NCBI GenBank assembly: GCA_019634005.1
Contig: JAHQWD010000003.1
Span: 176,539-240,538, forward strand
Direction: 5' to 3'
From: Candidatus Kaiserbacteria bacterium
GTDB lineage: Bacteria > Patescibacteriota > Minisyncoccia > Phycocordibacterales > UBA918
DNA: 64,000 nt
The stretch's first letter is position 1; the number at the start of each line of letters is the position of its first letter. The position numbers were made by a program, and so were the translations under genes. Under the pieces are notes generated by a model that ran no database searches, had not been told where the DNA came from, and was given only the letters and a program-made list of their open reading frames with translations. Shown one piece after another: positions 10,599-57,996 of this stretch.

Positions 10599-10601
10599 TC
10601 T

Positions 10602-11132
10602 ATGTCTGAAACTGTAGAGACACTCAATTTCATTATGGGTACTGGTGGCGTAGTGATGCTCGTTGCTGGGCTATTGCTTCTTGTCGACCGTATCTTTTTG
10701 AAGAGTCCTGAGGTACGAAATATGGTAGAGCGATGGGGGCTCTTACTCGCTGCGGCACTTACGGTGGGGGCGACAATCATGGCTCTGGTCTATTCCGAAA
10801 TATTTGGATTTGTACCCTGCGGTCTCTGTTGGTTGATGCGTATCTTTGTCTTCTCGCAGGCGTTCATTATGACCACCGCGTTTCTTAAAAAGGATTATGG
10901 TATTGCAGTCTATGGGATGGTGCTCTCTGTTCCAGGGATTCTTATTGGACTCTACCAACACTATCTCCAGATGGGTGGAGGCGAGTTTGTTCCTTGCCCT
11001 GCAGCGGCGGGGGACTGCGCAAAACGCATTCTTTTTGAATACGACTTCATGACTTTCCCACTCATGGGAGCGTCCATGTTGTTCCTTCTTACCATGGTAT
11101 ACACTTATCTTATTCGTATTAAACAACTATAG
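10602..11132 (+). CDS. disulfide bond formation protein B family (DsbB/BdbC-like)
   Basis: 4 TM helices, a PCGLC motif in loop 1 and a second Cys pair (FVPCPAAAGDC) in loop 2. It is adjacent to the Trx-like gene. Confidence 0.6.
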   Translation: MSETVETLNFIMGTGGVVMLVAGLLLLVDRIFLKSPEVRNMVERWGLLLAAALTVGATIMALVYSEIFGFVPCGLCWLMRIFVFSQAFIMTTAFLKKDYGIAVYGMVLSVPGILIGLYQHYLQMGGGEFVPCPAAAGDCAKRILFEYDFMTFPLMGASMLFLLTMVYTYLIRIKQL

Positions 11133-11133
11133 T

Positions 11134-12006
11134 ATGACAAATACAGCACGAAACTTCTCATTACAACTTGGCTCGCTGATCGCACTCTATGTTTCGCTTT
11201 CTGCGATCCTTGCGGTGCTCTTTGGAGTGATTAATCTTGCATTTCCAGATGCTGCGGAAGGATACTGGGCGTATAACTCTGCGCAGAGTGGAATCCGCTT
11301 TGGTATTGCGGCGGTAATTGTCTTTTTTCCTGCATATCTTATCCTCACGAGAATTTCTAATAAGATTCGAAGAGAGGAGTCTGGATCGTATACAACGGTC
11401 ACTAAGTGGCTTGTATACCTGTCACTTATCGTTGGAGGAGGCATTCTTCTTGGAGACCTGGTTGCGGTCATTATGACGTATCTCAATGGAGAGATTACCG
11501 AGCGGTTTATCCTCAAAGCACTCGCACTCTTTGTAGTTATCAGTGCGGCATTCAAGTACTATCTTCGTGATGTCGTGGGGTACTGGGATACGCACGAGAA
11601 GCAGTCCATCATGTTTGGTGGTGTAAGTGTTGTTCTCGTTATCGCTGTTCTTGTTCTCGGTTTCTATCATGCTGATACACCAAGCACCGTACGTGAGATG
11701 CGTATTGATACGGAGCAGGTAAATGACCTTGAACAAATCTCGTGGCGTGTAGAGGAATATTATAGTGTGAACAAAATGTTGCCCGAGACACTCTCTGATG
11801 TGTATGGAACACTTTCTGTGCCAGAGGCTGTAGAGGATCGTCCTGCGTATCAGTATAGAGTTCCCAATGAAACAACCTTCGAACTCTGCGCAACATTCGC
11901 ACATGAGTCTCGAGAGAATCGTGCGTCATATGCACCAATAGAAAAGATCCCGCAGAGTTGGGATCATGGGGAAGGAGAGACATGCTTCACCAGAGTGGTG
12001 GAGTAG
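11134..12006 (+). CDS. integral membrane protein of unknown function
   Basis: 290 aa with about 5 TM helices and a C-terminal soluble region. Followed by a terminator. Confidence 0.55.
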   Translation: MTNTARNFSLQLGSLIALYVSLSAILAVLFGVINLAFPDAAEGYWAYNSAQSGIRFGIAAVIVFFPAYLILTRISNKIRREESGSYTTVTKWLVYLSLIVGGGILLGDLVAVIMTYLNGEITERFILKALALFVVISAAFKYYLRDVVGYWDTHEKQSIMFGGVSVVLVIAVLVLGFYHADTPSTVREMRIDTEQVNDLEQISWRVEEYYSVNKMLPETLSDVYGTLSVPEAVEDRPAYQYRVPNETTFELCATFAHESRENRASYAPIEKIPQSWDHGEGETCFTRVVE

Positions 12007-12013
12007 ATAGACT

Positions 12014-12045
12014 GAAAGCCCGGCGAAACACTGCACGGGCTTTTT
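12014..12045 (+). terminator. intrinsic terminator (gaaagcccg...cgggcttttt)
   Basis: A hairpin plus T-run after the membrane-protein gene. Confidence 0.55.
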
Positions 12046-12046
12046 G

Positions 12047-12307
12047 TTATTCGGCTGCCTGAGCAGCAACTTCAGTGAGCGCCCCCTTCAGGAAGGGGGC
12101 AACATGTACGACAGAGACCTTGATGTAACAGAAAATAATTACCGCGTCCGTAATTATGGCCGTCAACACAATCCCCAGCGAAGGGGTGGGCTCTGCGACA
12201 AAGATTGCCACAAACGGAATCTGAAGTAAGCCCAGGAAAACATAGAAGCCAACAACCATGGCAATTCTCTGTTTTAAAGGTAGTTTTTTAAACCCTTTTT
12301 TATCCAT
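12047..12307 (-). CDS. small two-TM membrane protein (86 aa)
   Basis: The ATG is preceded by AAAGGAGGTG. The hydrophobic stretches are VVGFYVFLGLLQIPFVAIF and LGIVLTAIITDAVIIF. The longer 183-aa ORF version was rejected. Confidence 0.5.
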   Translation of the reverse strand: MDKKGFKKLPLKQRIAMVVGFYVFLGLLQIPFVAIFVAEPTPSLGIVLTAIITDAVIIFCYIKVSVVHVAPFLKGALTEVAAQAAE

Positions 12308-12409
12308 CCACACCTCCTTTTTGTTCAGTTCACAATGGAAGATATATGTATATTGCGTTTGTGTCAAATACACGGTATGGTGCAGACAGCATAGCAACAG
12401 GAGAGAAAG

Positions 12410-12640
12410 ATGAAGATATTCTTCTTTGAATCTGTAAATGACGGCGTCCACCTTCCGTATAAGATGATGAGCGTCGTTCTTGCAGCTGAGGATGACAATG
12501 ATGCACAGGTGGTTCTTAAATCGCACTTGCGAGACACCACTGGAAGTGAAGGGCTGGCTCAATTCTTCAGCCTTGTGGAGACATCTGTCACAGATCAAGC
12601 GCTGGAGAGCGGTGAACTGATCACCCGTGTGCAGCGGTAA
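12410..12640 (+). CDS. hypothetical small acidic protein (76 aa)
   Basis: An AGGAGAG SD precedes the ATG and a hairpin follows at 12663-12687. Not recognised as any family. Confidence 0.3.
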   Translation: MKIFFFESVNDGVHLPYKMMSVVLAAEDDNDAQVVLKSHLRDTTGSEGLAQFFSLVETSVTDQALESGELITRVQR

Positions 12641-12747
12641 TCAACATCTAACTGGACACATGAAGCCCGCACCCGAGTGCGGGCTTTCGATTATATACAG
12701 TCTAATTTTCTAGACATATTCCCCAAACACGGCATAATACGGTAACT

Positions 12748-15564
12748 ATGCACAAGAAATTCAATCACGAGGAGATAGAAAAAAAATGGCAAGAGAAATG
12801 GCAGAAGGACGGACTGTATGATGTCGGAGATCGTGATGAATCCAAAGAGAAGGAGTATGTACTGGTGGAGTGGCCATACCCCTCAGGGAATCTCCATATA
12901 GGACACTGGTATGCGTTTGCAGTTCCAGATATTTACGTGCGTGCGCAACGCATGAAAGAAAAACAGGTTGTCTTCCCGATGGGGTTTGATGCATTTGGAC
13001 TTCCAGCGGAGAATGCGGCAATCAAACACAACCTCGATCCGAAAGAGTGGACAGAATCTAATATCGAACACATGAAGAAGCAGTTGCAAAGCATGGGAAA
13101 CGCGTTCTCATGGGATAAGACTGCAAGTTCTACCGATCCAGAATATTACAAATGGACACAGTGGATGTTTACTAAGTTCTTTGAAGAGGATGTTGCGTAC
13201 AAAGGAAAGGGGACCGTGAATTGGTGTCCATCGTGTAACACCGTACTTGCGAATGAGCAGGTGGTAGACGATGCGTGTGAACGATGTGGCACAAAGGTTG
13301 AAAAGAAAGAGATGGACGAATGGAAAATGCGTATCACCAAATATGCAGATCGTCTTGTTGATGACCTCGACACGCTCGACTGGCCACTTCACATTAAAGA
13401 GTTGCAGAAGAACTGGATTGGACGGTCAAAAGGGGCAAAGATTGCCTTCACACTTTCTAGTGGAGATACCGTGGAGGTCTTCACTACACGTCCTGATACG
13501 CTCTATGGAGCAACATACTTAGTACTTGCCCCAGAACATCCGCTTCTTGAGACTCTTTCAATAGAAAACAAAGATCAAGTGCTTGCATACCAAAAGGAGG
13601 CTGCTTCCAAAGATGAACGGACGCGCACCGCAGAAGGAAAAGAGAAGACTGGTGTACGTCTCGAAGGAGTCACTGCAACAAATCCAGCAAATGGAAAAGA
13701 AATTCCTGTATACATTGCAGACTACGTGTTGGGTGGATACGGAACTGGTTCCATTATGGCAGTACCTGGACATGACGCTCGGGACTACGCATTTGCCCAG
13801 AAATACGATCTCCCAATTGAATATGTTGTTGAGCCAGTGTTCACAAAACAAGATGGAGACGATGCGTTCCGAGAGGATGCAGAAATCGCAGAGCGGCAAG
13901 CAATATCTGCCGTTGTATACAACCCAAAGACAGAGAAATATCTTGGACTTAAATGGAAGAAGGTAGATTGGGACACACTTATCACTGGAGGTATTGAAGA
14001 AGGGCAGACTGCTGAAGAGGCAGCACGACAAGAAGTGCTAGAAGAAACAGGATACAAGAACCTCAAGCTTGTAAAACAACTTCCAAGTTATCAAGGAAGA
14101 TTCTGGCATGTACCGAAGGAGGTGAATCGAGTAGCACATTTTCAGTGCTTCCTTTTTGAGCTTGAAAACGAAGAGCAGGAGACTGTTGTTGAAGATGAAC
14201 AGAAAAAGCATGAATACGTCTGGCTTTCAAAAGAAGAGATGATGAACTTTAGACTCCCTGAAGGACATCGCTTCCTTATGGACGGAATCCTTACTGAAGA
14301 TCTCTTCTATGGTGGAAACGGAGATCTGGTGAACTCTTCAGAGTTCACCGGCATGTCTTCTGAAGAAGCGAAAGAAAAGATCACCGAGAAGGTGGGTGGA
14401 GAGATGACAAATACGTATCGTCTCAGAGACTGGTCTATCGGACGCCAACGATACTGGGGTGTGCCGATTCCAATCGTCTATGATCCAGATGGAAAAGCAC
14501 ACGCAATTCCAAAAGAATATCTTCCGTGGACGCTTCCAGAGGATGTAGATTTCAAACCAACAGGAGAACCACCGTTTGCAAAGAGTGAAGAACTGAAGCA
14601 ACGCACCGAAGAGATCTTCGGTGTTGGATGGACACCAGAGGTAGAGACGATGGATACCTTTGTAGATTCTTCATGGTATTTCCTTCGATATATAGATAAC
14701 AAGAATGATGAAGAGCTTGCTTCAAAAGAGACTCAGAAGAATTGGATGCCTGTTGATCTCTACTTCGGAGGATCAGAGCACACAACACTCCACCTCCTCT
14801 ACTCTCGTTTTGTGCAGAAAGCACTCTTTGACCTTGGGGTCACGACCGTAGAGGAACCTTACAAAATGCGTATCAACCGTGGACTTGTCTTGGGGCCAGA
14901 TGGTAACAAGATGAGTAAGTCCAAAGGGAATGTGATTGATCCAGATGGAGAGGTGTCACGTGTGGGGTCCGATGCAGTGAAAATGTACCTTGCTTTTATG
15001 GGGCCGTATGGAGAGACGGCAAACTACCCGTGGGATCTTGGAGGTATTGCAGGAACACGACGTTTTCTAGAACGTGTATATGGACTCTCGGAACATGTGC
15101 AAGAAACAGAGTCTGGAGAAATGACGCGTACTCTCCATAAGACTATTGCAAAAGTATCTGAAGATATCGAGGCGTTTAAGTTCAATACGGCAATCAGTGC
15201 ACTGATGATGTATGTGAACGCTGCGGAAAAAGAGGGGATTACGGAGGAGTCATATAAGGTGTTTCTCCGCCTCCTTGCACCATTTGCACCGCATCTTACT
15301 GAAGAACTGTGGAAAGAAGAGTATTCTATCCATCAGGAATCTTTTCCTATGGCAGACACGTCACTTACTACAGAAGAGGAGGTTACCATTGGTGTCCAGA
15401 TTAATGGAAAGGTGCGCGGGGAAATAACGATCGCACCTGACGCGGACGAGGCGGCAGCGATTGCTCTCGTGCGAGAGAATGAAAAGCTCAAGGAGTATAT
15501 TGAGAAGGGGGTTAAGAAGGTTATTTACGTACCTGGACGTATCCTCAGTATTATTCTTGAATAG
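12748..15564 (+). CDS. leuS: leucine--tRNA ligase with an embedded NUDIX-hydrolase domain
   Basis: The HIGH motif (HIGHWY), the TRPDT editing motif, KMSKS and a zinc knuckle are all present. About 150 extra residues between KYDLPI and LVNSSEFTG carry a Nudix box, GGIEEGQTAEEAARQEVLEETGY. Confidence 0.95.
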   Translation: MHKKFNHEEIEKKWQEKWQKDGLYDVGDRDESKEKEYVLVEWPYPSGNLHIGHWYAFAVPDIYVRAQRMKEKQVVFPMGFDAFGLPAENAAIKHNLDPKEWTESNIEHMKKQLQSMGNAFSWDKTASSTDPEYYKWTQWMFTKFFEEDVAYKGKGTVNWCPSCNTVLANEQVVDDACERCGTKVEKKEMDEWKMRITKYADRLVDDLDTLDWPLHIKELQKNWIGRSKGAKIAFTLSSGDTVEVFTTRPDTLYGATYLVLAPEHPLLETLSIENKDQVLAYQKEAASKDERTRTAEGKEKTGVRLEGVTATNPANGKEIPVYIADYVLGGYGTGSIMAVPGHDARDYAFAQKYDLPIEYVVEPVFTKQDGDDAFREDAEIAERQAISAVVYNPKTEKYLGLKWKKVDWDTLITGGIEEGQTAEEAARQEVLEETGYKNLKLVKQLPSYQGRFWHVPKEVNRVAHFQCFLFELENEEQETVVEDEQKKHEYVWLSKEEMMNFRLPEGHRFLMDGILTEDLFYGGNGDLVNSSEFTGMSSEEAKEKITEKVGGEMTNTYRLRDWSIGRQRYWGVPIPIVYDPDGKAHAIPKEYLPWTLPEDVDFKPTGEPPFAKSEELKQRTEEIFGVGWTPEVETMDTFVDSSWYFLRYIDNKNDEELASKETQKNWMPVDLYFGGSEHTTLHLLYSRFVQKALFDLGVTTVEEPYKMRINRGLVLGPDGNKMSKSKGNVIDPDGEVSRVGSDAVKMYLAFMGPYGETANYPWDLGGIAGTRRFLERVYGLSEHVQETESGEMTRTLHKTIAKVSEDIEAFKFNTAISALMMYVNAAEKEGITEESYKVFLRLLAPFAPHLTEELWKEEYSIHQESFPMADTSLTTEEEVTIGVQINGKVRGEITIAPDADEAAAIALVRENEKLKEYIEKGVKKVIYVPGRILSIILE

Positions 15565-15657
15565 GGTTGACGTTGTGTCAATAACGTGATAAAAAGTACT
15601 TATATTGTGTAATAAGAGATTAGAAACCGCACAAAATAAGGATAAATTAGAAAAAAT

Positions 15658-16683
15658 ATGATTACATTTAAGCCGAAACAGGCAACCAAGAAGTTGCTCT
15701 CTGTACTTCCCGACCGCGCACGTGATGTGCTCGAAAAGCGATACGGACTTGGAAAAAGTACAGCGAAGCAGACACTTGAATCGATTGGGCAGACATACGG
15801 TATTACCCGTGAGCGTGTTCGACAGATCGAAAATTACGCGATCCAGTCTATTCAAAAGTCTGATGTCTACGATGAGTTCGAACCAGTGTTCGATGAACTC
15901 AAAGAGATTCTTAACTCACTCGGTGCGGTAGTGAGTGAAGATGTACTTCTTGAAGAAGTATCAGATGATAAAGCGGTACGTAATCATATCTATTTCCTCC
16001 TTGTTCTTGGAAATGCATTCTATCGTGCAAAAGAGAATAAAGATTTCTGCCACCGATGGCATGTAGAGAAGAAAGTTGCCGATCAGGTAGAAAGTGCACT
16101 CCAGACAGTATTTGATTCCCTCGAGGAAGACGAACTCGTTACTGAAGAGGACATTCTTGTGCGTCTTCAAGATGAGTTGAAGGATCTTGAGGACTCATAT
16201 CGCGACGAATCAAACCTTAAGCGGTGGCTTGCCATCTCTAAGAACCTTGATCGTAATCCACTCGGAGAGTGGGGGAATGCAGCATCACCAAATGTTCGCG
16301 CAAAAGGTATCCGAGATTATGCATACCTTGCGGTAAAGCGTCATGGATCTCCAATGCACTTCAAGGAAGTTGCCGACGCTATCAAAGAACTCTTCGGTCG
16401 TACTGCGCATGTTGCAACGACCCACAACGAACTTATTAAAGACGAACGTTTCGTGCTCGTTGGTCGTGGGCTCTATGCACTCACTGAGTGGGGCTACTCT
16501 GCAGGAGTGGTAAAGGATGTACTTCGTGACATTCTTGAGAAGGAAGGTCCACTTTCACGTGAGGAAATCATTGATCGCGTGCGAAAGGAACGATATGTGA
16601 AGGATAATACTATTGTGGTAAACCTCCAGGACATTTCGCTCTTCAAGCGACTACCTGACGGCACTTACATGGCAATCGACTAA
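15658..16683 (+). CDS. DNA-binding protein with an N-terminal sigma-70 region-4-like HTH and a C-terminal HARE-HTH (RNAP delta-subunit-like) domain
   Basis: N-terminus: LPDRARDVLEKRYGL...TLESIGQTYGITRERVRQIE. C-terminus: HFKEVADAIKELFGR...FVLVGRGLYALTEWGY. Confidence 0.55.
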   Translation: MITFKPKQATKKLLSVLPDRARDVLEKRYGLGKSTAKQTLESIGQTYGITRERVRQIENYAIQSIQKSDVYDEFEPVFDELKEILNSLGAVVSEDVLLEEVSDDKAVRNHIYFLLVLGNAFYRAKENKDFCHRWHVEKKVADQVESALQTVFDSLEEDELVTEEDILVRLQDELKDLEDSYRDESNLKRWLAISKNLDRNPLGEWGNAASPNVRAKGIRDYAYLAVKRHGSPMHFKEVADAIKELFGRTAHVATTHNELIKDERFVLVGRGLYALTEWGYSAGVVKDVLRDILEKEGPLSREEIIDRVRKERYVKDNTIVVNLQDISLFKRLPDGTYMAID

Positions 16684-16718
16684 AGAAAAAACGACTCCCC
16701 AGTGAGTCGTTTTTTCTT

Positions 16719-18074
16719 ATGAAGCTACGGTATAATATTCGTATCATGCGTGAACTGATTACGAAGCCAGTTGAACAGGTGGAGAAATTTGGTGTAAATG
16801 GTGGAGTTATTTTAGCCATCCTTGGCATAGTCATGGTTGGTATTGTGGTGCATGCCTTTGATATTAATACCAATGCCGCGTTGAGGTTTGCAGTAGCAGC
16901 AGCACCGATATGGCTTCCGATCATTACTTTCTTGCTCTTCTTTGAGTTTTGGATGTATTTCGTTCGCAAAGAGTTTGATCTCAACCAAGGGAGAGTTGTT
17001 TTTGAAGTAACACTACCAAAGGATGTATATAAATCTCCTGAAGCCATGGAGCTTGTTTTAGTGCAATTGCACCAGACTGCGGCACCAGACAACCATGTAC
17101 AGACATATTGGGACGGAAAGCATCCTCCCACAACTTCCTTAGAACTTGTCTCCCATGGGGGAGAGGTGAAGTTTTATATTAGCGTTCCAAAGAAAAAATT
17201 TAAGAATATTATGGAGGCACAGCTCTACGCACAGTATCCAGGTATTGAGGTGAAAGAGTTAGAAGTGGATTACACAGCGGAGATTCCTTGGGATCCAGAC
17301 AAATATGCGTATTTTTCACTTCACTTTAATCTTAAGAAAGCAGACGCGTATCCACTTCGAACATATGTAGAATACGGACTCCATACTATGCCGAAGGAGG
17401 AAGAGAAAGTGGATCCGATCACTTCTATGGTGGACGCACTTGCAAATCTTGGGCCAAATGAATGGTACTGGGTGCAGATACTTATTGATGCAAACCGAGA
17501 GGTGACCTTTAAAGAAGGTGCACTGCGAAAACAGGCGGACTGGAAAGAGGCAGCCCGAGAAGAGATTGCAAAGATTGTTGATGCTGCACGAAAACGTTCT
17601 GGTGTCGAAGAAGGAGGGAATGTGATGCAACAACTTACTGATGTAGAGCGGGATACCATCAAGGCCATCGAGCGGAGTCTCGGAAAAAATGCTTTCAATG
17701 TTGCTATTCGTGGTATGTATATTGCAACACAGGAAGCATTCCTTCCTGGAGAACGCATCGGGCAACTTATCACGGGGTGGCGTGGGTATGATGATCTGAA
17801 TCGAAATGCAATTGGGGTACGGTGGCGCACTGACTTCGACTGGAACTGGTGGCAAGATCCTTCAGGGAAGCGGAGAATGGCACATAAAAAGCGAGAACTT
17901 GCAGAGTATAAGAAACGGATCTATTTATCTCAGAACAGCACCGACGGACGGAAGGTTATGACCACTGAAGAGCTAGCGACAATCTTCCACTTCCCAGGTC
18001 GAGTGCTCCTTACTCCAACTGTTGGACGTATTGAGTCGACTCGAAGCGAGGCACCAACGAACCTTCCTGTATGA
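16719..18074 (+). CDS. conserved hypothetical protein with an N-terminal double-TM anchor
   Basis: 451 aa with two TM helices followed by a large soluble domain. No family recognised. Confidence 0.5.
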   Translation: MKLRYNIRIMRELITKPVEQVEKFGVNGGVILAILGIVMVGIVVHAFDINTNAALRFAVAAAPIWLPIITFLLFFEFWMYFVRKEFDLNQGRVVFEVTLPKDVYKSPEAMELVLVQLHQTAAPDNHVQTYWDGKHPPTTSLELVSHGGEVKFYISVPKKKFKNIMEAQLYAQYPGIEVKELEVDYTAEIPWDPDKYAYFSLHFNLKKADAYPLRTYVEYGLHTMPKEEEKVDPITSMVDALANLGPNEWYWVQILIDANREVTFKEGALRKQADWKEAAREEIAKIVDAARKRSGVEEGGNVMQQLTDVERDTIKAIERSLGKNAFNVAIRGMYIATQEAFLPGERIGQLITGWRGYDDLNRNAIGVRWRTDFDWNWWQDPSGKRRMAHKKRELAEYKKRIYLSQNSTDGRKVMTTEELATIFHFPGRVLLTPTVGRIESTRSEAPTNLPV

Positions 18075-19075
18075 ATCTAAGACAGTTGTTTCCACGCATA
18101 AAGAAAGATCTCTTGATTCCTCCCGTACACAGAGACCAGACCTCTAAAGTCCCCCTGCTTGTATTTGGAGGTGTCCTTCTTTTGATCGTACTTTTTGTAG
18201 TATTGCTCTCAACACCGCGAGCGTTTCCTGTAGAAACTCGGATAGAAATTGAAGAAGGGAGTAGTGTTCGAGCAATTACGACGATGCTTGACGAGACAGA
18301 TGTTGTTCGTTCGCGACTCATGCTTCAAATGGTACTTGCTCTTCGACATCCATTTGACTCCATCAAAGCAGGCGTCTATACCTTTGATCAACGGAAGAGT
18401 GTTTTTGAAATTGCTGAAATTATAACCGAAGGTACAGACGGGACACCGTTGGTGCGCGTGACAGTACCTGAAGGACTTCGGGGGAGGGATCTTATTGAAA
18501 TCTTTACAGAGGCGGGGCTGACAAATGAGATGTCACTAAGTGTTGAAGATATCGATATGTATATCGGATATCTCTATCCAGACACATATCTCGTGCCAGA
18601 GACATATACATTCTCTGAAATGGTGGCGCTCATGCAGGAAACATACGAAGAAAAGGTAGCGCCGCTTCGTGATGCTTTCAAGACGCTCTCTGAGTCTGAG
18701 GTAATTACACTTGCTTCTATCGTGGAGCGTGAGGCAAAGGACGAAGCGTCTAAACGCATTGTGGCGGGCATCCTGCTTTCTCGGTTGGAGATTGGCATGG
18801 CGCTTCAGGTCGATGCATCGTTTTCATACCTCCTTGATAAAGAGAGTGCAGAGCTTACGCTTGAAGATCTCAAGATAGATTCTCCGTACAATACATATCT
18901 CTATCCAGGACTTCCACCAACCCCGATTGCAAATCCTGGCCTCGAATCTATTAAGGCAGTGCTTGATCCAGAGATAACGGAGTACGTGTACTATCTAACA
19001 GCACCAGACGGTACTTTCTATTACGCAGAGACATTTGAGGAGCATAAGCAAAACAAAGAGCGCTATCTACGGTAG
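18071..19075 (+). CDS. mltG: endolytic murein transglycosylase MltG (YceG family)
   Basis: An N-terminal TM helix and the motif DSPYNTYLYPGLPPTPIANPG. Confidence 0.85.
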   Translation: MNLRQLFPRIKKDLLIPPVHRDQTSKVPLLVFGGVLLLIVLFVVLLSTPRAFPVETRIEIEEGSSVRAITTMLDETDVVRSRLMLQMVLALRHPFDSIKAGVYTFDQRKSVFEIAEIITEGTDGTPLVRVTVPEGLRGRDLIEIFTEAGLTNEMSLSVEDIDMYIGYLYPDTYLVPETYTFSEMVALMQETYEEKVAPLRDAFKTLSESEVITLASIVEREAKDEASKRIVAGILLSRLEIGMALQVDASFSYLLDKESAELTLEDLKIDSPYNTYLYPGLPPTPIANPGLESIKAVLDPEITEYVYYLTAPDGTFYYAETFEEHKQNKERYLR

Positions 19076-26974: not shown

Positions 26975-28861
26975 TTGTTATACTCTGAATCTATGTCTGG
27001 GAATGAAATACGAGAACGGTTTTTAAAGTATATGGAGGAGCGGAATCATGCGGTTATTCCGTCTGCTGCCCTTGTTCCAGAGAATGACCCCACCACACTC
27101 TTTACAGGAAGTGGTATGCAGCCACTCGTTCCATATTTAATGGGAGAATCTCACCCAAAGGGAACACGACTCGCAGATTCTCAGAAATGTTTCCGTGCTG
27201 AGGATATAGAAGAGGTGGGAGATAATAGACACACTACCTTCTTTGAGATGCTCGGAAACTGGTCTCTCGGAGACTACTTTAAAGAAGAGCAGATATCATG
27301 GTTTTATAGTTTTCTTGTAGATGAGATCGGTCTGAATCCAGAGAATCTCTACGTAACCGTCTTTGCAGGAGATGAAGAGAACAATGTGCCCCAAGATGAT
27401 GAAGCTGTTGCTATCTGGCAGAAACTCTTTCAAGAGAAAGGGGTTAGTGACGGCGTTGCACGTATGGGATCTGAAGAAGATGGAGCGAAGCGTGGTATGC
27501 GGGAAGGAGAACGTATCTTCTATTACGACGCATCAAAGAACTGGTGGAGTAGGGCAGGAAAGCCAGAGAATATGCCTGCTGGAGAGCCAGGAGGACCAGA
27601 CTCTGAAGTCTTTTATGATTTCGGTACAGAACATGATCCTGCATTTGGAGAACACTGTCATCCAAACTGTGATTGCGGACGCTTCCTTGAGATTGGAAAC
27701 AACGTCTTCATGGAATACGTGAAGCAAGAAGACGGAACATTCGGAAAGCTTCCTGCGCAGAACGTGGACTTTGGTGGTGGCTTAGAACGTATTACCGCAG
27801 CAGCACTCGGGGAGTCTGATGTCTTTAAGGTGGATCTTCTTTCAAATGTTATTGAACAGATCGCAACACTCTCTGGGAAATCTTATGAAGATAATCTTGT
27901 TCCATTCCGTGTCATCTGTGATCATATACGTGGTGCTGTCTTCATGATTGGGGATGGTGTCATGCCATCAAATACAGAGCAGGGGTACTTTGTGCGACGT
28001 CTCCTTCGTCGAAGTGTGCGGTATGCGGATACACTTGGTATTGGAGAAGGAAAGCTCGCAGATCTTGCAGAAAGCGTTGTCGAGACATATCAGGGTCACT
28101 ATACAAATCTTGGAGAGCAGAAAGACCAGATTATTGAAACTATCCGCACTGAGGAAGCGCAATTCCGAAAGACTCTAGAGAAAGGTCTCAAACACTTTGA
28201 GAAATTAGCTCACGGAGATATTACGGGATACGAAGCATACATTCTCTTCACTACCTATGGATTCCCTGTGGAGCTTACCGAAGAGCTTGCGGTACAGCGA
28301 GGTCACGTGGTGGATATGGAAGGGTTTAAGGAGGAAATGAAGAAGCATCAGGAGGCATCGCGCGCAGGTGCTGCGGAAAAGTTTGCGGGTGGACTTGCGG
28401 ATCATTCAGAAAAGGTGGTGCAATATCATACCGCAACCCACCTTTTGCTCGCAGGACTTCGTAAAGAGCTAGGGGATGATGTGCACCAGGCGGGATCTAA
28501 TATTACTGGGGAACGACTCCGATTTGACTTCACCCACCCAGAAAAAGTGTCTGCAGAGGTGTTAGAAAAAGTAGAGGAGTACGTAAATACTGCTATTAAA
28601 GCAGGGGCTAGTGTCTCAACCCAGACCATGACAAAGACTGATGCAGAGAGTGATCCAACAGTGGAAGGAAGTTTCTGGGATAAGTATCCAGACGAGGTGA
28701 AAGTGTATACCGTAAAAGATGAAGCGGGGAATGTATACTCCCGAGAACTGTGCGGTGGGCCACATGTAGAAAACACGGGAATCATTGATGGAACATTTAA
28801 GATTGTAAAAGAATCTTCTTCATCTGCGGGAGTACGACGTATTAAAGCGATACTTGAATAA
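26975..28861 (+). CDS. alaS: alanine--tRNA ligase, short form lacking the C-terminal C-Ala domain
   Basis: The N-terminal catalytic core (LVPENDPTTLFTGSGMQ) and the editing-domain motif HTATHLL...are both present. The length is 628 aa, against about 870 typical. Confidence 0.9.
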   Translation: MLYSESMSGNEIRERFLKYMEERNHAVIPSAALVPENDPTTLFTGSGMQPLVPYLMGESHPKGTRLADSQKCFRAEDIEEVGDNRHTTFFEMLGNWSLGDYFKEEQISWFYSFLVDEIGLNPENLYVTVFAGDEENNVPQDDEAVAIWQKLFQEKGVSDGVARMGSEEDGAKRGMREGERIFYYDASKNWWSRAGKPENMPAGEPGGPDSEVFYDFGTEHDPAFGEHCHPNCDCGRFLEIGNNVFMEYVKQEDGTFGKLPAQNVDFGGGLERITAAALGESDVFKVDLLSNVIEQIATLSGKSYEDNLVPFRVICDHIRGAVFMIGDGVMPSNTEQGYFVRRLLRRSVRYADTLGIGEGKLADLAESVVETYQGHYTNLGEQKDQIIETIRTEEAQFRKTLEKGLKHFEKLAHGDITGYEAYILFTTYGFPVELTEELAVQRGHVVDMEGFKEEMKKHQEASRAGAAEKFAGGLADHSEKVVQYHTATHLLLAGLRKELGDDVHQAGSNITGERLRFDFTHPEKVSAEVLEKVEEYVNTAIKAGASVSTQTMTKTDAESDPTVEGSFWDKYPDEVKVYTVKDEAGNVYSRELCGGPHVENTGIIDGTFKIVKESSSSAGVRRIKAILE

Positions 28862-44449: not shown

Positions 44450-45796
44450 ATGGAACGAACATTAATTGAATCACTTAGGGAACATAAAGGGAGAGAGATA
44501 TCTATCGGCGCAGTCGTGGATGTTATGCGTGACCAAGGGAAGATGGCGTTCTTTGATTTCCGTGACCGTACAGGAAAGGTGCAAGGTGTTGTCTTTGGAA
44601 AGCCAGAGGTGCTCGAGGTTGCAAAAACACTTTCTCCAGAGTCTGTTGTCTCGGTAATGGGAATAGTGAACGAGCGGCCAGAGAAAATGGTAAACGCAGA
44701 TGTACAGAATGGTGATATTGAGATTGAGATCACTGGTATAGAGATCCTTTCAAAGGCAGACACACTTCCATTTGATTCTGACGCTGAATTGAAACTTGAT
44801 ACGCTCTTAGATTACCGTCCACTTACGCTTCGACGAGAACGAGAACGTGCCATCTTTAAAGTACAACACACGATTCTTAAAGCATACCGAGATTTTCTTA
44901 CCTCAGAAGGGTTTACAGAGTTCCAGGCACCGAAATTGGTAGGGGGAGATGCTGAAGGTGGAGCAGAAGTATTCAAGGTGGACTATTTCTATGATAAGGA
45001 TGCATTCCTCGCAACCTCACCACAGCTCTATAAACAAATTATGGTTGGCGTCTTTGAACGTGTTTTTTCTGTCGGTGCGACCTTCCGGGCAGAGAAGAGC
45101 GCGACTACCCGTCATCTCAGTGAAATCTCCATGCTCGACTTAGAGATGGGATTCATTAAAGACCATACGGATGTCATTGGTATGGTGACCAAGCTCATGC
45201 GATATATCAGTGAGACTGTTGCAAAGGAGTGTGCGGAGGAATTGAAAATTGCAGAAGTAGATGCACCACTTGCACCAGAAGAGTTCCCAGTATTTACACT
45301 CCGCGAAGCACAGGAACTTATTAAAAAAGAGACGGGGGAGGATAAAACAAACGAACCAGACCTTGAGCCTGAGGATGAACGTTTCCTCTGCGAGTATGCA
45401 AAAGAGAATCTCAATTCAGACTTTGTCTTTGTGACACACTTCCCAACATCAAAGCGTCCGTTCTATACGCATGTAGACCCTGAGAATCCAGAGTACACCC
45501 GTAGCTTTGACCTCCTCTTCCGTGGACTGGAAATGTGTTCTGGAGGACAGCGTGTCCATGACTACAACACGCTCATAGAGCGTATTAAAGAGAAGGGGCT
45601 CGACCCAGAGAAGTTTGATTTCTATCTCCAAGCATTCAAGTACGGTATTCCACCACATGGAGGAATCGGTATGGGACTTGAACGTCTCACCGCAAAGATG
45701 CTCAATGTTGCAAACGTAAAAGAAGCAACCCTCTTCCCGCGTGATATGCATCGTATCGATACACGGCTCTCAAAAGAGGATGATACAATGGACTAG
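44450..45796 (+). CDS. aspS: aspartate--tRNA ligase, archaeal/compact type (possibly non-discriminating AspRS; AsnRS not excluded)
   Basis: Class II motifs are present, including SPQLYKQ and the motif-3 sequence GGIGMGLERL. Confidence 0.85.
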   Translation: MERTLIESLREHKGREISIGAVVDVMRDQGKMAFFDFRDRTGKVQGVVFGKPEVLEVAKTLSPESVVSVMGIVNERPEKMVNADVQNGDIEIEITGIEILSKADTLPFDSDAELKLDTLLDYRPLTLRRERERAIFKVQHTILKAYRDFLTSEGFTEFQAPKLVGGDAEGGAEVFKVDYFYDKDAFLATSPQLYKQIMVGVFERVFSVGATFRAEKSATTRHLSEISMLDLEMGFIKDHTDVIGMVTKLMRYISETVAKECAEELKIAEVDAPLAPEEFPVFTLREAQELIKKETGEDKTNEPDLEPEDERFLCEYAKENLNSDFVFVTHFPTSKRPFYTHVDPENPEYTRSFDLLFRGLEMCSGGQRVHDYNTLIERIKEKGLDPEKFDFYLQAFKYGIPPHGGIGMGLERLTAKMLNVANVKEATLFPRDMHRIDTRLSKEDDTMD

Positions 45797-56454: not shown

Positions 56455-56724
56455 TATAATTTATATGAGGGCTTTAGGATCTCATCTGATACATGCTACA
56501 GTAGATCTACACATACTCATCGTTGCGTAGGTGGATAGTTCGCTATCGAGTGTGTGTGGAGGAGATTGGTCTACCTCATTTCCGTAGAGTCTCAAGAATG
56601 AACGGCAAGATCAGAATGGCGTCTTCTCGACGCTCCGTAGGTTGTTCTAGTGCTCTTGGAGAAGAATGACCCCGCATGGAGAGAAGGATTGGATTAGACA
56701 CCCACCTTCCCCATGCGGTTTTTT
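56455..56724 (+). ncRNA. candidate small RNA (~260 nt) of unknown class
   Basis: An extended -10 TGTGTATAAT lies at 56451-56460. There is no ORF of 60 aa or more on the + strand. It ends in a hairpin plus TTTTTT. Confidence 0.3.
56672..56724. terminator. intrinsic terminator (ccgcatgg...ccatgcgg + TTTTTT); also lies 3' of the convergent NUDIX gene
   Basis: Read from the sequence. Confidence 0.55.
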
Positions 56725-57181
56725 ATATTTCTTCCAGCTCTTTCTCTAAAACAACATCCTCCTCACCAAAGTGGAAACGTCCTTTAAACTTCTTTCCCTC
56801 AAGGAACATGGGTACCCAATAGATATCATCTGGCCACATATCAGTGAAAGGTATCTCTTTTGTCTTAAACCACTGAGGCTTCATCTCTTCAGTCTCTACA
56901 GGCTCTCCAGAGAATGTTTCTGCCTTGAAGATATGTACCTCCAATATCTCTTCTGGACTATGTGCAAAAGAGAAATCCAGTACCCCGTGTTTCTGAATAT
57001 CTGAGACCCGCACACCACATTCTTCTTTCATTTCTCTCTGTACCGCCTCTTCTATACTTTCTCCCTCCTCCACCTTCCCACCAAAACCATTCCACCTCCC
57101 CGCTCCAAAACCTCGTTTTTTCATGCCGAGGAGGACATGATCATTTTTATGAACGATACAAAGAGTTAGCTGCTTTCTCAT
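56723..57181 (-). CDS. NUDIX hydrolase
   Basis: Nudix box GGKVEEGESIEEAVQREMKEECGV. Confidence 0.8.
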   Translation of the reverse strand: MRKQLTLCIVHKNDHVLLGMKKRGFGAGRWNGFGGKVEEGESIEEAVQREMKEECGVRVSDIQKHGVLDFSFAHSPEEILEVHIFKAETFSGEPVETEEMKPQWFKTKEIPFTDMWPDDIYWVPMFLEGKKFKGRFHFGEEDVVLEKELEEI

Positions 57182-57996
57182 ATGGATGTAAACTTATCAA
57201 GAATATCGCCTGGCATAAAACGGGACATCATCACTGTATATTCTTTCCGCTCCTTTGTCAGATGCATCGTATACTCCCCTTCCCTCCCTAATTGTTTTTT
57301 GATCTCAGGATGATTCTCTAGATATGACTCTAGCTTACAAGGAACAACCTCGTCCTGTGAGATAACATGGAGAGAGTCTCCGTAGGTACGACGGATCATG
57401 TTCTTCAGGAGTGTGTAGTGCGTACAAGCAAGTACAACTGTATCCACTCCCCTATTTCTCTCTATGGTATCTGCAAGGATGGCATATGCTTGCATGGTAT
57501 TTCCTGTCTCAATAAGCGGCACTAGTGCAGGTGTTGGGACTGAAAGAAGCTCCATATGATTCACTCCTCTTTGTGCTAGTTCGAGATTGTACTTCTTGGA
57601 GTCAACGGTACGTTTTGTCCCCACCAGGAGTGCTCTCTGTGCATGTCCTTCGATAAGCTCTTCTACCGTTGGAATAATGACTCCGAGAATCCTTCTATCT
57701 GGATACTCCTCTACAAGGAACGTATCCTGGAGTCTCCGTAATGTCTCTGCGGATGCAGTGTTACACGCAATAATGACCACCGCACAATCGTGCTCAAAAA
57801 GATACCGCATGGCTTCCTCAGTATATTGGTATATTTCTTCCTCACTTTTATCTCCATACGGAAGATTTTTTGTGTCTCCGTAGTAGAGATAATTGTACTC
57901 TGGGAGGTGCGTGATAACACTGCTGAGGATAGTGAGCCCACCAATCCCAGAATCAAAGAATCCTATGTTACTTTTTCCGTACTGCTCGTGTTGCAT
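57178..57996 (-). CDS. murI: glutamate racemase
   Basis: IGFFDSGIGGLTIL and the motif with the second catalytic Cys. Confidence 0.9.
   Translation of the reverse strand: MQHEQYGKSNIGFFDSGIGGLTILSSVITHLPEYNYLYYGDTKNLPYGDKSEEEIYQYTEEAMRYLFEHDCAVVIIACNTASAETLRRLQDTFLVEEYPDRRILGVIIPTVEELIEGHAQRALLVGTKRTVDSKKYNLELAQRGVNHMELLSVPTPALVPLIETGNTMQAYAILADTIERNRGVDTVVLACTHYTLLKNMIRRTYGDSLHVISQDEVVPCKLESYLENHPEIKKQLGREGEYTMHLTKERKEYTVMMSRFMPGDILDKFTSI

Follow-up and report, generated by a model that had tools for sequence, protein, structure and literature searches.

Few enzymes are as conserved or as thoroughly studied as the aminoacyl-tRNA synthetases, whose accessory domains are usually stable, lineage-defining and tied to tRNA or amino-acid chemistry. 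Some of these modules exist both embedded in a synthetase and as stand-alone proteins, as seen for the INS domain of ProRS with YbaK and ProXp, and for the editing domain of AlaRS with AlaX. Here, we analysed a stretch of 64,000 nucleotides from a Candidatus Kaiserbacteria bacterium (GenBank assembly GCA_019634005.1, contig JAHQWD010000003.1, positions 176,539 to 240,538; hereafter the window), in which the leucyl-tRNA synthetase gene leuS encodes a LeuRS with a Nudix domain inserted in frame into its editing domain. Like ProRS with INS/YbaK, AlaRS with AlaX and the IleRS-GNAT fusion of the model NF040702, this is a synthetase carrying an extra, here putative, catalytic module; unlike those modules, which are deacylases or acetyltransferases tied to the synthetase reaction and stably inherited, that of LeuRS is predicted to be a nucleotide pyrophosphohydrolase and is exchanged between near-identical genes. 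Conserved frames with swapped cassettes are known from the target-recognition domains of HsdS in type I restriction-modification systems and from the C-terminal domains of polymorphic toxins. The leuS locus shares with these the unrelated in-frame cassettes in near-identical frames, but its host is an essential housekeeping enzyme, its cassettes are internal, and no silent or orphan cassettes were seen adjacent to it. Taken singly, the LeuRS and Nudix parts are ordinary members of their families; their combination, an essential synthetase hosting exchangeable and stackable hydrolases, appears undescribed. Our preferred reading, to which as a whole we give about an even chance, is that the insert is an active nucleotide pyrophosphohydrolase carried on LeuRS, acting independently of it and belonging to a set of interchangeable hydrolase cassettes.

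The leuS product passes TIGR00396, the equivalog model of bacterial LeuRS (leuS_bact), with 880.2 bits against a cut-off of 548.4, and is 100% identical to P0121, a protein named 'class I tRNA ligase family protein [Candidatus Kaiserbacteria bacterium]' at NCBI. Its full-length AlphaFold2 (AF2) model reaches a predicted local distance difference test score (pLDDT) of 92.9 and a predicted template-modelling score of 0.85, and Thermus thermophilus LeuRS (Tth) can be aligned with it from end to end (E 1e-201). The parts of the gene are as follows, in window coordinates and with residue numbers of the protein:

12748..15564, plus strand: leuS, complete bacterial-type LeuRS with insert, 938 amino acids (aa) and a stop (open reading frame, TIGR00396, AF2)
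12895..12906, plus strand: HIGH of the class I synthetic site, aa 50-53 (motif position)
aa 160-180, plus strand: CxxC...CxxC zinc knuckle of LeuRS (motif position)
13408..13830, plus strand: N-terminal part of the CP1 (connective peptide 1) editing domain, aa 221-361, ending in the strand ...KYDLPIEYVV (PF13603, Tth alignment)
13483-13500, plus strand: T-rich editing motif TTRPDT, aa 246-251 (motif position)
13771-13785, plus strand: HDARD with the conserved editing Asp, aa 342-346 (motif position)
13831..14325, plus strand: Nudix cassette of 'type 10', aa 362-526 (boundaries against the empty-site LeuRS P0203 and P0177)
13894..14271, plus strand: Pfam NUDIX match, aa 383-508 (PF00293, 50.3 bits in the whole protein, 55.7 in the excised segment)
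13987..14055, plus strand: Nudix box GGIEEGQTAEEAARQEVLEETGY, aa 414-436 (motif position, alignment with PDB 3smd)
14326..15561, plus strand: rest of LeuRS, with the second catalytic half, the anticodon-binding domain and the C-terminal domain (Tth alignment, Pfam)
aa 527-535, plus strand: LVNSSEFTG, the returning strand of the editing domain (Tth alignment)
14908-14922, plus strand: KMSKS, aa 721-725 (motif position)

All LeuRS motifs that a first-pass annotation of this DNA had named (HIGH, the zinc knuckle, TTRPDT and KMSKS) are thus in place. Together with the editing Asp and the anticodon-binding and C-terminal domains, they are shared with the canonical enzymes of T. thermophilus (1H3N, 2BYT) and Escherichia coli (4AQ7, 3ZGZ), from which the window LeuRS differs in having a 165-aa Nudix cassette instead of the 13-residue loop 363-377 of Tth, and in having no leucine-specific domain. 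The latter is seen in the alignment, where Tth residues ~579-638 have no counterpart; at this point the window (14893-14925, LeuRS aa 716-726) reads ...LVLGPDGNKMSKSKGN. Judged by its sequence, the host LeuRS would otherwise be complete and functional.

The same annotation had placed a Nudix-fold domain in frame between the KYDLPI and LVNSSEFTG segments, and four lines of analysis (Pfam, the Tth alignment, AF2 and Foldseek) agree with it. As proposed there, we ran Pfam NUDIX on the insert; at 55.7 bits the excised segment lies well above the PF00293 gathering cut-off of 21.1 bits. The NUDIX match interrupts that of the editing-domain profile PF13603 (207 bits), of which aa 221-377 cover positions 1-159 of 185. 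The Tth alignment breaks at 363 and resumes at 377, with ~158 window residues (362-521) facing 13 in Tth; the same loop measures 16-17 residues in insert-free orthologues and 46 in one. The coordinates first given for the segment, 13830-14340, begin one base too early for the reading frame; read in frame, the segment runs from 13831 to 14340, with the cassette itself covering 13831-14325. The N-terminal strand of the cassette, EPVF, continues a LeuRS strand; next come the Nudix fold, the C-terminal helix and finally a short linker. The GC content of the insert (0.43-0.45) is no different from that of the remaining leuS. Modelled on its own by AF2 (pLDDT 92.7), the cassette shows the alpha/beta/alpha sandwich of the Nudix fold, and Foldseek matched this model to 501 Nudix chains of the PDB at E<=1e-3, with probability 1.0 and template-modelling scores of 0.54-0.72. 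In the full-length model, the LeuRS strand YVV passes directly into the first cassette strand EPVF, and neither junction has a low-confidence linker; since the junction blocks reach pLDDT >=90, the Nudix domain is predicted to be rigidly docked. The host domain binds the tRNA 3' end, and its editing Asp lies 16 residues upstream of the insert.

The Nudix box had been called near-canonical, and to a large extent it is: G414, E429, E432, E433 and G435 are canonical (E429-V-L-E432-E433-T-G435-Y436), so that the three catalytic Glu and the glycines are intact. The full consensus GX5EX7REUXEEXGU is nevertheless broken at two specified positions, where Q420 replaces the first Glu and Q428 the Arg, the latter being shifted to 427; both substitutions are visible in the alignment with PDB 3smd. 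The domain lies in frame in a surface loop near the C-terminal end of CP1 and, from the model and these residues, is probably competent as a Nudix pyrophosphohydrolase. An intein, as another kind of in-frame insert, was considered and rejected: the segment starts with E362-P-V-F and ends with ...G-N-G-D526 before L527, there are no splice-junction residues, and the fold is Nudix. At the right junction, a perfect 10-nt inverted repeat with a 2-nt loop (14328-14349; GGTGAACTCT TC AGAGTTCACC) spans the VNSSEFT codons. We tried it as a recombination signal and discarded it; it is probably coincidental because it is not conserved in the closest relative, where the stem has only 4 nt. Target-site duplications or terminal repeats were not found at the cassette edges.

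How common this architecture is was examined in two sets of homologues, the 120 closest LeuRS and 80 loci from a GTDB scan, both picked by similarity to the window and therefore not unbiased; all homologues come from metagenome assemblies. The 120 closest LeuRS are 60-89% identical to the window protein and all bear Patescibacteria-type names. In 116 of them, a Nudix insert lies at exactly this site (148-172 aa, ~320 aa in some), each with a precomputed PF00293 hit, and three others hold only 16-46 residues there. An exhaustive HMMER search with the cassette alone against 1.84 billion cluster representatives gave 498 hits at E<=1e-3; the best 150 of these comprise 107 LeuRS-linked proteins, 34 short proteins and nine others, and the LeuRS-linked representatives carry one (96), two (8) or three (3) Nudix domains. 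The GTDB scan, with one genome per species, listed 80 loci from 80 assemblies, ~58 LeuRS-embedded and 22 free-standing, under the record names Kaiser-, Staskawicz-, Nomura-, Colwell- and Taylorbacteria, Moraniibacteriota, Sungiibacteriota, Paceibacterota and some Saccharibacteria. Within this Patescibacteria clade, the fusion is the norm for LeuRS. It is no artefact of assembly or gene calling either, a possibility we rejected given its presence in >100 independent proteins and the recovery of two alleles discussed below (P0144 and P0230) in two to three independent assemblies each, with the same synteny.

The first-pass annotation knew of no described LeuRS with such an insertion. In one respect this stands: we found no paper or curated family for it. 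In another it does not, as the alignment of orthologues shows the insert to be common in the clade (116 of 120), where its annotation is automatic, through Pfam, only. The NCBIfam scan of the leuS product gave neither a model nor a curated name for a LeuRS-Nudix fusion, although NCBIfam does contain an exception model for the IleRS with GNAT, and no paper on one was found in the full texts searched, among which subscription papers are few, so that the absence is not proof. Several of the names in use are odd. NCBI calls LeuRS-Nudix proteins 'class I tRNA ligase family protein' (P0121, P0134, P0160 and others) despite their passing the LeuRS equivalog. One LeuRS-Nudix locus of Patescibacteria type (L046, CAZMHN010000001.1) is labelled 'uncultured Gammaproteobacteria bacterium' and many others 'Candidatus Saccharibacteria'; these labels are probably automatic or mis-binned. 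In two proteins of 273 aa each (P0244 and P0455), a Nudix cassette is joined to the C-terminal half of the editing domain of a LeuRS and to nothing else, and P0244, on a 16.8-kb contig, may be a free-standing editing-domain fragment with its cassette and not a truncated gene call.

The embedded domains are far from decayed. Across 115 embedded copies, G414 and E429 are conserved without exception (115/115) and E432 and E433 with one exception each (114/115), and R383, K457, N460, E484 and W492 hardly vary, whatever the cassette type. The first-pass annotation had allowed for a decayed insertion, with box glutamates that are not conserved among homologues; their near-invariance in 115 copies speaks otherwise. 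The Q420 and R427 variant of the box is invariant in 120 free-standing relatives and is thus a trait of the family, not decay; the canonical E and R occur in 79/115 embedded copies, which are of other types. Synonymous sites are saturated between the window gene and its relatives P0122 and P0123, so the comparison was made on nonsynonymous divergence (dN). Against P0122, dN is 0.022 in the Nudix core, 0.074 in the LeuRS body and 0.103 in the editing domain, that is, 3-fold lower in the Nudix core than in the body; against P0123, the values are 0.078, 0.115 and 0.154, respectively. In the window lineage, purifying selection acts more strongly on the Nudix domain than on its host synthetase. A decayed or pseudo insert was therefore ruled out by the nearly invariant catalytic residues together with a dN below that of LeuRS.

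Conservation of the active site goes along with a high turnover of whole cassettes. Compared with the window, the LeuRS bodies of 120 homologues are 62-89% identical and their Nudix domains only 19-96%; at least seven types, with <40% identity between them, can be told apart among the embedded domains, distances of body and cassette are uncorrelated (Spearman rho = -0.11), and the cassette configuration differs in 20 of 42 LeuRS pairs with >=85% identical bodies. The clearest pair is P0144 and P0230, which are ~99% identical outside the insert (30/30 in almost every 30-residue window on both sides). The former carries two Nudix domains (types 11+1) and the latter a single one of type 7, ~30% identical. 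Their loci are syntenic, with DNA flanks of 98.5% and 96.8% identity enclosing two stretches, of 1001 bp and 515 bp, between which no similarity is detectable, and the breakpoints fall directly after '...KQVI' and ~30 nt past 'NSxEFxG'. As the nearest relatives of the first P0144 cassette (75-77% identical) sit in LeuRS with bodies only 74-77% identical, the cassette alone appears to have been imported. Other pairs differ in the presence of the second domain (P0209 and P0174), in a swap of the first of two domains with an unchanged junction '...NSTPKRKVFG...' (P0143 and P0158), or in a filled against an empty site (P0133 and P0203). The empty-site LeuRS P0177, present in two assemblies, and P0203 are true orthologues with the same synteny as the window, and no Nudix gene lies within 10 kb of their leuS genes.

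The cassette is exchangeable, in that it has been gained, lost, stacked in tandem and replaced, and the insert is dispensable for LeuRS. Vertical inheritance with fast divergence was rejected as the source of the types, given unrelated cassettes in near-identical bodies and sharp DNA breakpoints. We infer that the exchange would proceed by homologous recombination in the flanks, between the short conserved stretches that encode the adjoining LeuRS strands (...LPIxQVV / cassette / xGxLxNSxEFxG). Silent or orphan cassettes beside leuS were not seen at the examined loci, and a cassette much more similar than its body, as a sign of lateral transfer, was without a strong case in the sample (maximum +0.11). 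Phages were rejected as a vehicle, no viral homologue exceeding 38% identity.

The type-10 cassette also exists as a gene of its own, with at least 120 clusters of free-standing relatives of ~160 aa in Patescibacteria that are 55-73% identical over the whole cassette, the EPxF strand included, and nearer to the window cassette than most other LeuRS inserts are. These proteins (~157-165 aa; P0001 and P0010, for example, are named 'NUDIX hydrolase [Candidatus Staskawiczbacteria]') share the EPxF strand and the Q420/R427 box with the embedded form and differ from it in being separate genes in variable contexts, without the C-terminal linker of ~10 residues. For the other cassette types, a search for close free-standing relatives returned only LeuRS fragments. 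In distance-based, bootstrapped neighbour-joining trees, neither the embedded nor the free-standing type-10 copies were monophyletic in any replicate (0/60 each), the two states being intermingled; the first such tree had nested the free-standing genes within the embedded ones, a topology we discarded as it lacks bootstrap support, only the intermingling being robust. Among the 80 species loci listed, free-standing and embedded type-10-like copies never share an assembly. The two forms may accordingly be alternatives, an interpretation limited by the incompleteness of metagenome-assembled genomes and by the restriction to 80 loci. A conserved neighbourhood of the free-standing copies was not found, at most three of 24 loci sharing a neighbour (a HAD gene). 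In three related genomes (L002-L004, 3089-4103 in L002; also L016), the free type-10 Nudix gene lies 10 nt 3' of a HAD hydrolase gene, HAD being a family also found inserted in LeuRS. Two free-standing Nudix proteins of 157 aa (P0019 and P0026) are named 'leuS' at NCBI, evidently because the annotation was transferred from the fusion.

The Nudix cassette is not the only foreign domain in these synthetases. Some LeuRS of species representatives reach 1100-1560 aa (1558 in L075, 1528 in L087), and the editing domain of relatives holds up to four foreign domains per protein at four or more sites. Mapped on the insert-free P0203, the insertions lie at ~365-385, the site of the window (~133 cases), at ~240-250 (12) and at ~210 (6), with rarer positions between 300 and 480. 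Extra Nudix domains bring their number to as many as three per protein, and the other inserts include further hydrolases, found not only where the editing domain begins (P0203 ~210 and ~240) but also at other positions:

L051, L053, L075, L031, L079: alpha/beta serine hydrolases, PF06821 (Ser_hydrolase) and PF00561
L062, L057, L066, L086: Ham1/ITPase-like domains
L087, aa 1011-1165: HAD_2 phosphatase

The Ham1 domain of the LeuRS relatives scores 58.8 bits with PF01725, and a divergent relative of dITP/XTP pyrophosphatases (PDB 6wwd, E 2e-4) is also inserted. For an insert of ~140 aa at site ~240 (L035 aa ~248-387, L037, P0201 aa 240-368), no sequence match in Pfam or the PDB was found. Nudix, Ham1/ITPase and HAD nucleotidases are reportedly the classic house-cleaning nucleotide hydrolases.

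Around leuS, the gene order is YchF GTPase, DsbB-like, DUF5671, leuS, Sigma70_r4/HARE-HTH, DUF8128, YceG and MnmA (window ~10600-18100), and this synteny is kept across divergent Patescibacteria (L007, L095-L099) whatever the cassette content. Elsewhere in the window lie three more synthetases and a second Nudix gene:

26975-28861, plus strand: AlaRS, 628 aa, with catalytic and tRNA_SAD domains only
44450-45796, plus strand: class IIb synthetase, 448 aa
51682-53217, plus strand: GluRS, 511 aa
56723-57181, minus strand: free-standing MutT/MTH1-like Nudix, 152 aa (GRWNGFGGKVEEGE...WPDDIYWVP), Pfam NUDIX 62.5 bits

The three synthetases (AlaRS, the class IIb enzyme and GluRS) are compact and free of foreign domains; within the window region, the insertions are specific to LeuRS. 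The Nudix gene overlaps the end of the upstream open reading frame 57178-57996 by 4 nt, and its scores with NCBIfam MutT models (47-59 bits) are below their cut-offs. Going by its sequence, the genome would have a conventional sanitising Nudix besides the one embedded in LeuRS.

In our preferred reading, the Nudix domain would work as an enzyme in its own right on a pyrophosphate substrate of nucleotide type, be it a non-canonical or surplus nucleoside triphosphate or a compound of the form NDP-X or NpnN, and so in house-cleaning. LeuRS would be its stably expressed carrier and scaffold, with the domain not needed for aminoacylation or editing, and the window cassette would be one member of an interchangeable family of hydrolases, mostly Nudix (one to three per protein) but also Ham1/ITPase-like, HAD and alpha/beta serine-hydrolase domains at neighbouring sites. 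The domain is taken to be independent of aminoacylation because it also occurs as a stand-alone gene, because cassette-free LeuRS exist, because the insertion sites differ in geometry and because house-cleaning families are inserted alongside it. Hydrolytic activity, the house-cleaning class of substrate and independence from the LeuRS reaction are what we infer from these data. As to the substrate itself, the named structural neighbours of the cassette are an uncharacterised Nudix of Enterococcus faecalis, NudI, NudC, Ndx1 (Ap6A), CT771 and aq_158 (Ap4A), RppH and NudB. Characterised small Nudix proteins (E. faecalis 2AZW, NudI, Ndx1, CT771/aq_158/NUDT2, RppH, NudC and NudB) share with it the fold and the EUxEE motif and differ in that none is embedded in another enzyme and that identity to the cassette is <=27%. 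With such identity and no curated family threshold reached, their substrate specificity is not transferable. In particular, the cassette does not score as MutT-type (NUDIX_4 15.8 against 35, and no NCBIfam MutT model listed), and the separate MutT-like gene at 56723-57181 makes an 8-oxo-dGTP role for the insert unlikely.

Several points weigh against this reading. The cassette reaches no NCBIfam equivalog, the best match being RppH NF001936 with 27.8 bits against 118 and the next RppH model NF001938 with 23.6 against 116, and its structural neighbours span NTPases, hydrolases of diadenosine polyphosphates (ApnA), RppH, NudC and DHNTPase, all within that same low identity; 'generic house-cleaning' is, besides, a vague label. 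The bootstraps settle neither a free-to-embedded nor an embedded-to-free direction, and recombination in the flanks is deduced from the breakpoints, not observed. If the domain is a passenger, it is left unexplained why LeuRS should be the carrier while the three other synthetases of the window are compact, why hydrolases make up nearly all of the inserts and what makes their turnover so fast. Finally, a domain that AF2 predicts to be rigidly docked, and that follows the editing Asp by 16 residues in the sequence, might be functionally coupled to LeuRS.

In the explanation put forward by the first-pass annotation, the Nudix would be an ApnA hydrolase clearing, at the source, the ApnA made by LeuRS or other synthetases, or by-products of the adenylate. 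Synthetases are known producers of ApnA, and a Tyr ~16-18 residues after the Nudix box marks ApnA hydrolases. In this region the family has F or Y and the window copy F452/W453 at +16/+17; conserved basic residues (R383, K457 and R461) would suit a polyphosphate chain, the best neighbours include a putative Ap4A hydrolase (5cfi, E 5e-4), CT771, aq_158 and Rv2985, and the Ap6A hydrolase Ndx1 of T. thermophilus is, at 26-27%, the most identical of the structural neighbours. However, the ApnA hydrolases in the PDB reach only E 5e-4 to 1e-2 at 17-27% identity, no better than other subfamilies, NudI, RppH, NudC and DHNTPase are equally close in structure, and no curated ApnA hydrolase model was reached or listed in the NCBIfam scan. 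Aminoacyl-adenylates, moreover, have no pyrophosphate bond and are hence not Nudix-type substrates. Insert-free LeuRS orthologues with the same synteny, the free exchange of the cassette, the existence of the same Nudix type as a free-standing gene, and the Ham1/ITPase-like, HAD and alpha/beta-hydrolase domains at equivalent sites, none of which is known to act on ApnA, further argue against a role at the source, and we consider this explanation unlikely. The position of the insert, within a domain responsible for binding the 3' end of the tRNA and predicted to be docked there rigidly so shortly after the editing Asp, would also suit an activity on RNA: removal of 5'-pyrophosphate as by RppH, decapping of NAD or Np4N ends, or removal of pyrophosphate from the 3' end of tRNALeu by means of the grip of the editing domain on the acceptor stem. 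RppH models are the best partial NCBIfam matches, for the free-standing relatives likewise, and the structural neighbours include RppH, NudC and a Nudix effector that decaps mRNA; yet the scores are far below the RppH cut-offs, the same domain occurs alone and is also inserted, with a different geometry, elsewhere in LeuRS (~210 and ~240), and some orthologues lack it altogether, which leaves this reading with a slim chance.

The speed of the exchange invites a different explanation, that the cassettes are fast-evolving countermeasures in an arms race with hosts, competitors or phages, tethered to the target enzyme and perhaps detoxifying nucleotide-mimicking inhibitors of LeuRS or undoing what toxins have done to tRNALeu ends or nucleotide signals. 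Unrelated cassettes in 98-99% identical genes, frequent gain, loss and replacement at shallow divergence, tandems, the involvement of several hydrolase families, and active-site residues that the types have kept in spite of a divergence to <40% identity in the remaining domain are what such a conflict would produce, and the IleRS with GNAT (NF040702) is a curated precedent of a synthetase with an accessory catalytic domain. Within a type, though, the cassette evolves about as slowly as LeuRS, and more slowly in the window lineage, which is purifying and not diversifying selection. The conserved synteny is one of housekeeping genes and not a defence island, viral homologues come no closer than 38% identity, no toxin or inhibitor is known as a candidate, and PADLOC-DB gave no significant match, only 19-31-bit Nudix-box matches to the candidate PDC-S07 in four relatives and none for the window protein or cassette; we regard this conflict-driven origin as rather improbable. 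A broader reading, that the LeuRS editing domain of Patescibacteria is an in-frame 'integration platform' which collects, stacks and exchanges small hydrolases under selection and with little role for chance, the free Nudix family being born from the cassettes or shuttling with them, is also on the unlikely side, with a small chance of being correct; the turnover might then be driven by a need to neutralise nucleotide-like inhibitors or toxins that target LeuRS or tRNALeu, or to tune nucleotide salvage to the host. At the other extreme, the insert may have lost its hydrolase activity and serve as a nucleotide sensor, as a surface for protein interaction or as neutral baggage. The two non-canonical box positions of the window copy (Q420 and Q428) and the functioning of LeuRS without an insert in some relatives would fit this, but the near-invariance of E429, E432, E433 and the box glycines in the 115 copies, the constancy of Q420/R427 in the 120 free-standing relatives and the 3-fold lower dN of the core make a non-catalytic insert very improbable.

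In conclusion, the presence of a Nudix insert in LeuRS is as such ordinary within this clade of Patescibacteria, while the cassette phenomenon behind it is not. It matters for annotation, as several names that LeuRS and free Nudix proteins bear at NCBI are annotation artefacts, and it provides protein engineers with a natural experiment in the tolerance of domain insertion, in which cassette-free orthologues serve as natural controls of a directly testable system. Should the domains act independently of LeuRS, as in our preferred reading, they would strikingly illustrate how ultra-small genomes economise on genes and how mobile their domains can be; should they be coupled to LeuRS or tRNALeu, they would add a new layer of translation quality control or defence at the synthetase.

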